Positions 13,398 to 14,330 of a stretch of DNA of 64,000 nucleotides are shown here, piece after piece. Both the position numbers and the translations under genes were made by a program. This DNA comes from Escherichia coli (GTDB lineage Bacteria > Pseudomonadota > Gammaproteobacteria > Enterobacterales > Enterobacteriaceae): assembly GCF_003018255.1 (NCBI RefSeq), contig NZ_CP027440.1. One strand, written 5' to 3'. Below the pieces are notes generated by a model that did no database searches, had not been told where the DNA came from, and was given only the letters and a program-made list of their open reading frames with translations. Numbering within the stretch: the stretch's first letter is position 1; each line of letters starts with the position of its first letter.

Positions 13398-14330
13398 CGA
13401 TACAACCTGATCCAGAAGTAATATAGAACGCCCGTCGCAAACTTGGGGAGTATGCAGAACATGGAATGCCTGAGAAGGATAACCACTCCAGTCAACGGCA
13501 ATGACGCACAACGTAAGGTCTCGGGGCTGAAACCGGGTAATATTATGAAAAATAGCCGGGATATCGCGGTGTAAAGCGTCATTGCCTGGCAGGCGATCGA
13601 TGGGCTTAATCTTGTTTTAACCTGAGCATTACCTGGCATATACCGTCCAATGCTGGTAAGGATGAGGGATGCGTCCCGACTAAGCGCAGCAGTGGCGTCA
13701 AGGATGGCATTCTGGCGGTACTGATGAAATGGAGTCAAATCATCACGGAAAAACTTTTGGCATGATGAGCGAACGGGCATAGAGGTGATCTCCTGAATTG
13801 TTAGCACAACCAGTCGACCACAAAACTCTATGCCCGTCTTTTTTACCCGCCTATTACTGAGGATTTCTCCGTACCATTACCGGCATTTGTTATCTTTCAT
13901 TGCTACATACGTCATCCCCCAACAAAGCAATGCTTTATAATATTATCGTAATGTCTTATTTTTTATTATTGCGATGGCTTTCTGAACATTTTATAGTGTT
14001 AGGTGTAAATCATTTATATTGATTCACGATAGGAGGATATGGACACCACACTTATTTTATGTCACTCAAGAAACACTTAAAATTCGTTGCACGTGTTATT
14101 ATTCTATTAAATAATTGCACATAATAGATTTTTTCTATTATGTAATAAAATAAAACACTATTAGATACTAGATATGCTAATGGTTTTATACTCTAAATAA
14201 TTCGAGTTACAGGTAGTGTATAAGTGAGTTCCCAAGAGCTTGCATAAGTAAGTGACTGAGGGAGCGTAAGTGCAGTACATGCAACTTGTTGCATGACAAA
14301 TATATTATCTATTAACAATAAGAGGTTATA

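Follow-up and report, generated by a model that had tools for sequence, protein, structure and literature searches.

A diverged ERIC repeat as the probable source of an operator-like palindrome upstream of a chromosomal dispersin/CexE-like gene in Escherichia coli

The locus and its ERIC repeat

The DNA considered here is a stretch of 64,000 nucleotides (nt) of Escherichia coli (RefSeq assembly GCF_003018255.1, contig NZ_CP027440.1), hereafter the window. It is part of the chromosome, with cusS, ybdG, nfsB, ybdF, ybdJ and ybdK followed by entD, fepA and so on to dpiB. A foreign island of ~7.5 kb and ~30% GC lies between a hokE/sokE remnant and entD, and in it a gene for a dispersin/CexE-like Aat substrate of 120 amino acids (aa) (14331-14693, plus strand, ATG at 14331) precedes the open reading frames of aatP, aatA, aatB, aatC and aatD (14775-19704, plus strand). 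Upstream of the substrate gene, a perfect 8-2-8 inverted repeat composed of CATGCAAC (14278-14285), TT and GTTGCATG (14288-14295) is followed by the -10-like hexamer TATATT (14301-14306) and by a ribosome-binding site (RBS), AAGAGG (14320-14325). The original prediction for this DNA saw these features as parts of an AT-rich promoter region of the kind controlled by AraC-family activators, and direct reading confirms that palindrome, hexamer and RBS are present. The sequence comparisons described below show, however, that the palindrome and the hexamer are the right-hand end of a degenerate enterobacterial repetitive intergenic consensus (ERIC/IRU) repeat and probably not a dedicated operator.

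The repeat was located with a hidden Markov model built from nine ERIC copies from five genera. In an nhmmer search, model positions 1-126 of 127 match window positions 14187-14303 (72.6 bits, E 1.4e-21), which is the sole ERIC match in the window; with the alignments, this delimits a diverged full-length repeat of 118 bp on the plus strand (14187-14304). Direct reading finds TA at 14187-14188 and at 14303-14304, and TA at both termini is among the features of ERIC-type miniature inverted-repeat transposable elements (MITEs) (PMC3184786). The island copy shares with other ERICs its full-length collinear match, its intergenic position and the conserved terminal blocks TATACTCTAAATAATTCGAGTT and ACATGCAACTTG. 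A sensitive BLAST search with 13880-14335 gave matches in 5425 of 5426 complete E. coli genomes, at ~77% identity and confined to 14184-14314, at a median of five places per genome and, among the matches listed, with no annotated feature beneath. The same segment is matched in plasmid or chromid records of Salmonella, Klebsiella, Proteus, Kosakonia, Citrobacter and others. ERIC/IRU elements are MITEs of about 127 bp, reportedly described by Sharples and Lloyd in 1990 and by Hulton et al. in 1991.

The island copy departs from the usual ERIC in its state of decay and in its setting, since it lies within a 30%-GC foreign island and not in core intergenic DNA. It has 24 substitutions in 118 aligned positions (~20%), 14 of them G>A or C>T, as well as nine deleted columns. 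The familiar core GTGAATCCCCAGGAGCTTACATAAGTAAGTGACTGGGGTGAGCG, the ERIC-PCR primer region, is present but diverged: a 28-nt stretch matches at 93%, and the two primer-length halves of the core gave no match at three or fewer mismatches, the copy being too diverged. An Rfam scan likewise reported nothing at 14187-14304. The long imperfect hairpin of ERIC on the transcribed strand is retained in weakened form, as the plus strand folds at -33 kcal/mol (z -2.97, none of 200 shuffles as good) against -51.1 kcal/mol (z -7.85) for a canonical copy; the minus strand is unstructured (z 0.2). In the long hairpin, the left half of the palindrome pairs with the left arm of ERIC. The -10-like TATATT (14301-14306, plus strand) consists of the terminal TATA of the repeat plus flanking TT and was unlisted by a promoter scan; two other ERIC copies, in the yeiS-preT and ybhJ-ybhI intergenic regions, show TATATT at the same junction.

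This ERIC is specific to the island lineage. All 11 island copies, including a variant at 97% protein identity, are identical across the repeat, and no ERIC was found in the relatives L007-L009 and L020-L025; those without it comprise a locus whose protein is 52% identical and plasmid loci with 73-76% identity in protein and ~79% in nucleotides. From 14318, directly after the repeat, the window is again homologous in nucleotide sequence to the plasmid relatives. A natural empty site or allelic variation was sought and had to be given up, with all island copies identical across ERIC and the relatives too diverged to align.

The AT-richness of the upstream region is as predicted, with 30.2% GC over 13900-14330 and 200-bp windows as low as 25.5%, yet it is not special to this region. 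The block from the dispersin-like gene to aatD has 30.6% GC against ~52% in the chromosomal flanks, and AT-richness is therefore a property of the island and not of the promoter region. Its AT content far exceeds the host's, and binding of H-NS is plausible.

Origin of the perfect palindrome

The palindrome (14278-14295) stops at its eighth pair, with A at both 14277 and 14296. As a bare inverted repeat, it is not beyond chance: perfect repeats with 8-nt arms and loops of 0-10 nt number 28 in the window versus 12.3 +/- 3.8 in shuffles, and at least one occurs in 15% of shuffles of the 431-bp region. Chance was rejected as the full story all the same, for these statistics are weak but the sequence is clearly derived from ERIC. 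The nine comparison copies invariantly read ATGCAACTTGAAGTATGACGAGTAT, in which the right arm, CATGCAAC-TT-GAAGTATG, is a quasi-palindrome with five of eight Watson-Crick pairs. Where these copies have GAAGTATG, the island copy has GTTGCATG, and the three substitutions (A>T, A>T and T>C) fall exactly where the two arms do not pair, introducing the complement each time. The palindrome is thus perfect because the right arm was already a 5/8 quasi-palindrome and its three non-pairing positions changed to the complement. These changes are unique to this copy. An ERIC subfamily feature was ruled out by the nine invariant copies, by an identity of at most 84% over the palindrome segment in every other E. 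coli ERIC, and by a scan of one genome from each of 100,044 species, in which no Enterobacterales genome contained the 18-mer CATGCAACTTGTTGCATG. The 48 matches of the 18-mer in that scan comprise a Planctomycetota repeat family plus scattered others. Within Planctomycetota, the 18-mer recurs many times in the metagenome-assembled genomes CSMAG_1807 and B1_G9 (L029-L049 and L063-L076), frequently in pairs on opposite strands with a spacing of 47 nt, which points to an unrelated repeat family.

In simulated ERIC copies with 20% random divergence, the frequency was 4e-5 for this palindrome and 1.5% for any perfect short-loop repeat with 8-nt arms, which makes independent drift unlikely. The correction of a quasi-palindrome in a single templated step, by template switching at a hairpin (the Ripley model), is a known mutational route, and natural quasi-palindrome hotspots of E. 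coli have reportedly been described by the Lovett laboratory. A single mutation of this type, and not selection for a protein site, most likely caused the three changes. The case resembles other template-switch mutations in showing several changes, seemingly simultaneous, each of which turns a mismatch into a Watson-Crick pair. It differs from them in being read from a single end product, with no intermediate alleles among the 11 island copies. A separate observation concerns a relative at 73% protein identity that has no ERIC (L021:2880-2925), in which TGCATG-type motifs occur ~40-80 bp before the start codon. These motifs, AATGCATGCAAAT...CCTGCATGACA, share TGCATGACA with the window, which may be coincidence, and score below 12/16 as sites for the repressor CytR, considered below.

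Promoters, activators and rival readings

The native AT-rich DNA upstream of ERIC (13900-14186, plus strand, 27.9% GC) is, to judge by its sequence, most likely where the real promoter lies. Its candidates include TTGCGA-17-TATAGT (13969-13997), the best under simple sigma-70 scoring, and the -10 hexamer TATTAT (14136-14141). The latter overlaps a perfect 10-5-10 palindrome, ACATAATAGA-ttttt-TCTATTATGT (14119-14143), which is stronger than the one at 14278-14295 (hairpin of -10.3 kcal/mol, z -5.6), went unflagged in the original prediction and shows no variation among the island copies. A clearly homologous block, ATTTTWTTATC-N28-TATWAT, lies 121-135 bp before the ATG in both L007 and L008, two of the plasmid relatives (z 8.3). 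Its counterpart in the window (14096-14147) is degenerate, with TATT replacing TATC, and of marginal significance (z 2.7, p 0.017). A hint from MAFFT that 14096-14147 is homologous to the relatives' promoters was retained only as a weak one, as the shuffle test gave this z of 2.7 versus L008 and no significance versus L007.

Regulators of the AraC family are known to control aap and cexE (PMC7344145, PMC7478709, PMC5554520), and AggR promoters follow a rule in which a WWWWWWWTATC box has a -10 hexamer 21-23 bp downstream (PMC6392122). With at most two mismatches allowed in the A/T tract, three plus-strand boxes of AggR/Rns type occur in the region, where shuffles give 1.9: at 13884-13894, at 13937-13947 (ATAATATTATC, zero mismatches) and at 14299-14309 (AATATATTATC, spanning the junction of ERIC and its flank and too near the ATG to activate this gene). 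None of the three has a -10 hexamer at 21-23 bp, and the canonical AggR promoter architecture was rejected on that ground. The locus does resemble the AggR-dependent aap promoter of enteroaggregative E. coli 042 and the Rns/CfaD-dependent cexE promoter of enterotoxigenic E. coli in having a dispersin/CexE substrate gene followed by aat genes, AT-rich upstream DNA with some WWWWWWWTATC boxes, and relatives with an AraC-family gene alongside. It differs from them in that no box has a correctly spaced -10 hexamer, no regulator gene is present in cis, ERIC separates the upstream DNA from the RBS, and the ATTTTWTTATC-N28-TATWAT block of the plasmid relatives is at best degenerate.

The claim that the window holds no AraC-family gene is borne out. 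None is annotated over the whole equivalent region of strain JNE23-011, which is 98.5-99.4% identical to the window and covers all of it with annotation from the Prokaryotic Genome Annotation Pipeline (PGAP), and tblastn and phmmer searches with four AraC-family queries found nothing significant in the window. Related loci do carry such genes. In L020 and L021, a divergent gene of 271 aa lies ~1.4 kb upstream of the operon, and in L022-L025 a convergent gene of 266 aa comes just after aatD; the plasmid relatives L007-L009 have no AraC-family gene within 6 kb. The positions that correspond in the window to the relatives' AraC-family genes are occupied by insertion sequence (IS) remnants.

An activator, if there is any, would accordingly act in trans, as had been proposed, and a candidate exists. 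Two of the three complete island genomes carry a 98-kb CFA/III-type plasmid that encodes CofS (AraC family) and WP_227918142.1. The latter, 269 aa long and annotated as "hypothetical protein", is homologous to Rns over its full length (PDB 6xiu, E 3.6e-40, residues 7-261), and its alignment with the regulator beside L022, which is nearly end to end with 249 residues, shows 35% identity. Its gene (L026:48731-49540 on pJNE23-011, NZ_AP045068.1) is also found on pJNE112863 and 18 other plasmids and is present on plasmids in 20 of 5426 complete genomes. The third complete island genome, DETEC-S792, gave no megablast match to this gene, and no virulence regulator was seen in the one of its plasmids that was inspected, over the first 50 kb. 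In a large assembly collection, the exact WP_227918142.1 protein occurs in 36 blocks versus 1593 for the dispersin-like protein. The Rns homologue would therefore be a concrete trans-activator candidate in some hosts, with a distribution that does not track the island. The protein is also a homologue of CsvR, and its score for Pfam HTH_18 is just under the cut-off (31.7 versus 33.6 bits). The CFA/III (cof) plasmids that encode it carry, in addition, a type VI secretion system, type III effector-like genes and lpxR.

In the explanation that we favor, with a probability of roughly 65%, ERIC separates the RBS of the dispersin/CexE-like gene from the AT-rich upstream DNA native to the island. The gene would probably be transcribed from a promoter in 13900-14186, making ERIC part of the 5' leader, where it could fold into the usual long ERIC hairpin, and transcription would probably require that a regulator from another locus, such as the Rns homologue on the plasmid of some host strains, relieve the silencing of the AT-rich island. 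Several points weigh against this explanation. The promoter position is a prediction from sequence; ATGCAA-16-TATATT, in which ATGCAA is the best hexamer at the -35 position (3/6), scores 8/12 and so about level with several upstream candidates; and 14096-14147 bears only a marginal likeness to the promoter block conserved in the plasmid relatives. Most hosts may have no such activator, given the 36 versus 1593 blocks and the lack of a match in DETEC-S792. The three changes, moreover, fall in an otherwise invariant ERIC segment and could also reflect selection; their product matches an optimal CytR operator at 14 of 16 positions. The alternative implied by the original prediction is very improbable: a virulence regulator, of the AraC family or otherwise dedicated, would use the palindrome as its operator and control a promoter with TATATT as its -10. 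The palindrome does occupy the -35 position relative to TATATT, and the control of aap and cexE by AraC-family proteins speaks for such an arrangement. Sites of Rns, CfaD and AggR, however, are asymmetric, A/T-rich and marked by TATC, and are not palindromes (PMC5554520, PMC6392122); a perfect palindrome is therefore unlikely as their target, and this one derives from ERIC, is absent from all relatives and has no box-to--10 architecture around it. By its sequence, the palindrome at 14278-14295 is not an AraC-type site. What stands of the original prediction is the substrate gene, the AT-rich upstream region, the lack of an AraC-family gene in cis and the plausibility of an activator in trans; what does not stand is the significance implied for a palindrome beside a -10 hexamer, both being internal to ERIC.

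CytR, a LacI-family repressor released by cytidine, offers another reading of the same 18 bp. Its optimal site has two GTTGCATT octamers, inverted or direct and preferably 2 bp apart (PMC3013702), and a left half AATG(T/C)AAC with a right half GTTGCATT makes a site that is optimal without CRP (PMC3454398, PMC5137460). The perfected ERIC arm might have been co-opted as an operator, so that CytR bound at 14278-14295 would repress the dispersin-like gene by occluding a TATATT promoter or as a roadblock to transcription from upstream, and a weaker site at 14736-14753 would work likewise before aatP. Compared with AATGCAAC-NN-GTTGCATT, the form of the SELEX optimum AATGYAAC-N2-GTTGCATT (PMC3013702, PMC3454398, PMC5137460), CATGCAAC-TT-GTTGCATG agrees at 14 of 16 positions in the same orientation and with the 2-bp spacer; every other such site in the 64-kb window scores lower. 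The match has an analytic chance of 2.6e-7 per position, ~1e-4 for the region and ~1.3 per 5-Mb genome, and the substitutions that create it lie in a segment invariant in the nine other copies. The weaker site, AATGCGAA-TC-TTTGCATT, agrees at 13 of 16 positions with a 2-bp spacer, where island shuffles give 0.047 such sites per 6 kb, but it lies inside a terminator hairpin (14730-14759) whose homologues in the relatives are unlike CytR sites, and the related loci have no CytR-type sites. A quasi-palindrome can also be perfected without selection, and natural CytR control normally needs flanking CRP sites, whereas no TGTGA-N6-TCACA match of at least 8/10 occurs in 13900-14400. Unlike known CytR operators, this candidate is repeat-derived and adjoins no nucleoside-catabolism gene; the likeness is in sequence only, was noticed post hoc among many known regulator motifs and has no counterpart in an ERIC-CytR link in the literature searched. 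We regard a functional CytR site at the palindrome as unlikely. A fuller proposal is a shade less likely again: three ERIC changes would have produced, 36 bp ahead of the start codon, a CytR operator close to the optimum and independent of CRP, which together with the weaker site at aatP would put an orphan island, deprived of its AraC-family activator, under a nucleoside-sensing repressor of the host. ERIC might also act as RNA, its long hairpin in the 5' leader altering mRNA stability or access to the RBS, and the palindrome would itself form a local hairpin of 7 bp, capped by a CUUG loop, as a possible competitor; this proposal is tentative and somewhat doubtful. It would accord with the strand-specific structure (z -3.0 on the plus strand) and with the review PMC3184786, citing De Gregorio 2005, according to which ERICs are co-transcribed and, within transcripts, can change mRNA decay. 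In a modeled 218-nt leader, the fold is predicted to switch to a minimum-energy structure with the local hairpin. That ensemble is very heterogeneous, however, with a frequency of 0.0002 for the minimum-energy structure, the local hairpin on its own is no better than shuffles (z -0.7), the long hairpin is much weaker than that of a canonical ERIC, and the location of ERIC in a leader depends on where the promoter is placed.

Island setting and meaning

The remaining features of the island agree with its description as a dispersin-aat locus. The 120-aa product begins with a signal peptide that ends ...NAFA (MKKYILVSLMGLSLNAFA), followed by the mature N-terminus GGSG, a Gly/Ser run, and it has a precomputed match to the Pfam family Dispersin (PF28204), although a local copy of Pfam gave no match. 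AatD acylates the Gly/Ser N-terminus of its substrate (PMC7943197). GGSG after the signal peptide, together with PF28204 and the adjoining aatPABCD, makes the label "substrate gene" of the original prediction sound. PGAP names the five aatPABCD genes as permease, TolC family, HlyD family, ABC ATPase and C-N hydrolase/apolipoprotein acyltransferase. The open reading frame of the TolC-like aatA (15899-17113) has 404 aa in the window versus 331 aa annotated in JNE23-011 and JNE112863 (L001:22980-23975) and 377 aa annotated elsewhere; the difference in length may reflect a different start site or a frameshift. Between the substrate gene and aatP, the hairpin at 14730-14759 (plus strand), followed by a T-run, is an intrinsic terminator.

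IS remnants bound the island on both sides. On the left is an IS4-family transposase gene remnant (13327-13781, minus strand), frameshifted and incomplete in the PGAP annotation of the identical locus, and on the right an IS630-family transposase gene remnant (19850-20785, minus strand), also annotated by PGAP. An attempt to set the boundaries of the IS4 remnant from other copies failed, with no close copy in other E. coli genomes. Some 550 bp of non-coding DNA separate this remnant from the 120-aa gene. A perfect 12-nt inverted repeat, ACGGGCATAGAG at 13773-13784 and CTCTATGCCCGT at 13826-13837, with 41 nt between its arms, encloses the 5' end of the IS4-family remnant and may be an IS-encoded hairpin. 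Directly left of the island lie the sok antitoxin RNA (13113-13268, plus strand, 85.7 bits), the only Rfam hit, and the hokE remnant (13000-13310); the island therefore fills the gap between hokE/sokE and entD, in which other strains carry different insertions. Far from the island, the cstA-ybdD intergenic region (44943-45079) is ~60 bp longer in the window than in JNE23-011 and breaks the BLAST alignment, which may reflect a small repeat insertion or deletion.

The island is present in only 3 of 5426 complete E. coli genomes. Yet the presence of the exact 120-aa protein in 1593 blocks of the assembly collection, with all eight exact-protein loci whose context was read adjoining ybdK/ybdJ, makes the chromosomal dispersin-aat island widespread. 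It no longer has the AraC-family gene found alongside two related loci, and a full-length Rns homologue hides as a "hypothetical protein" on CFA/III-type plasmids in 20 complete genomes.

For the most part the finding is an ordinary one, a common repeat element. Its consequence is that a palindrome which looks like an operator beside a -10-like box is the end of such an element, and this changes how the promoter should be mapped and mutated, as ERIC probably lies in the leader of the dispersin-like gene or provides its -10. Two points remain modestly interesting: an ERIC quasi-palindrome became perfect in what appears to be a single step, and the product coincides with the CytR optimum. If the CytR match were functional, secretion of a surface coat would be linked to nucleoside availability, and a MITE would have supplied a ready-made half-site for the regulatory rewiring of a horizontally acquired colonization factor.

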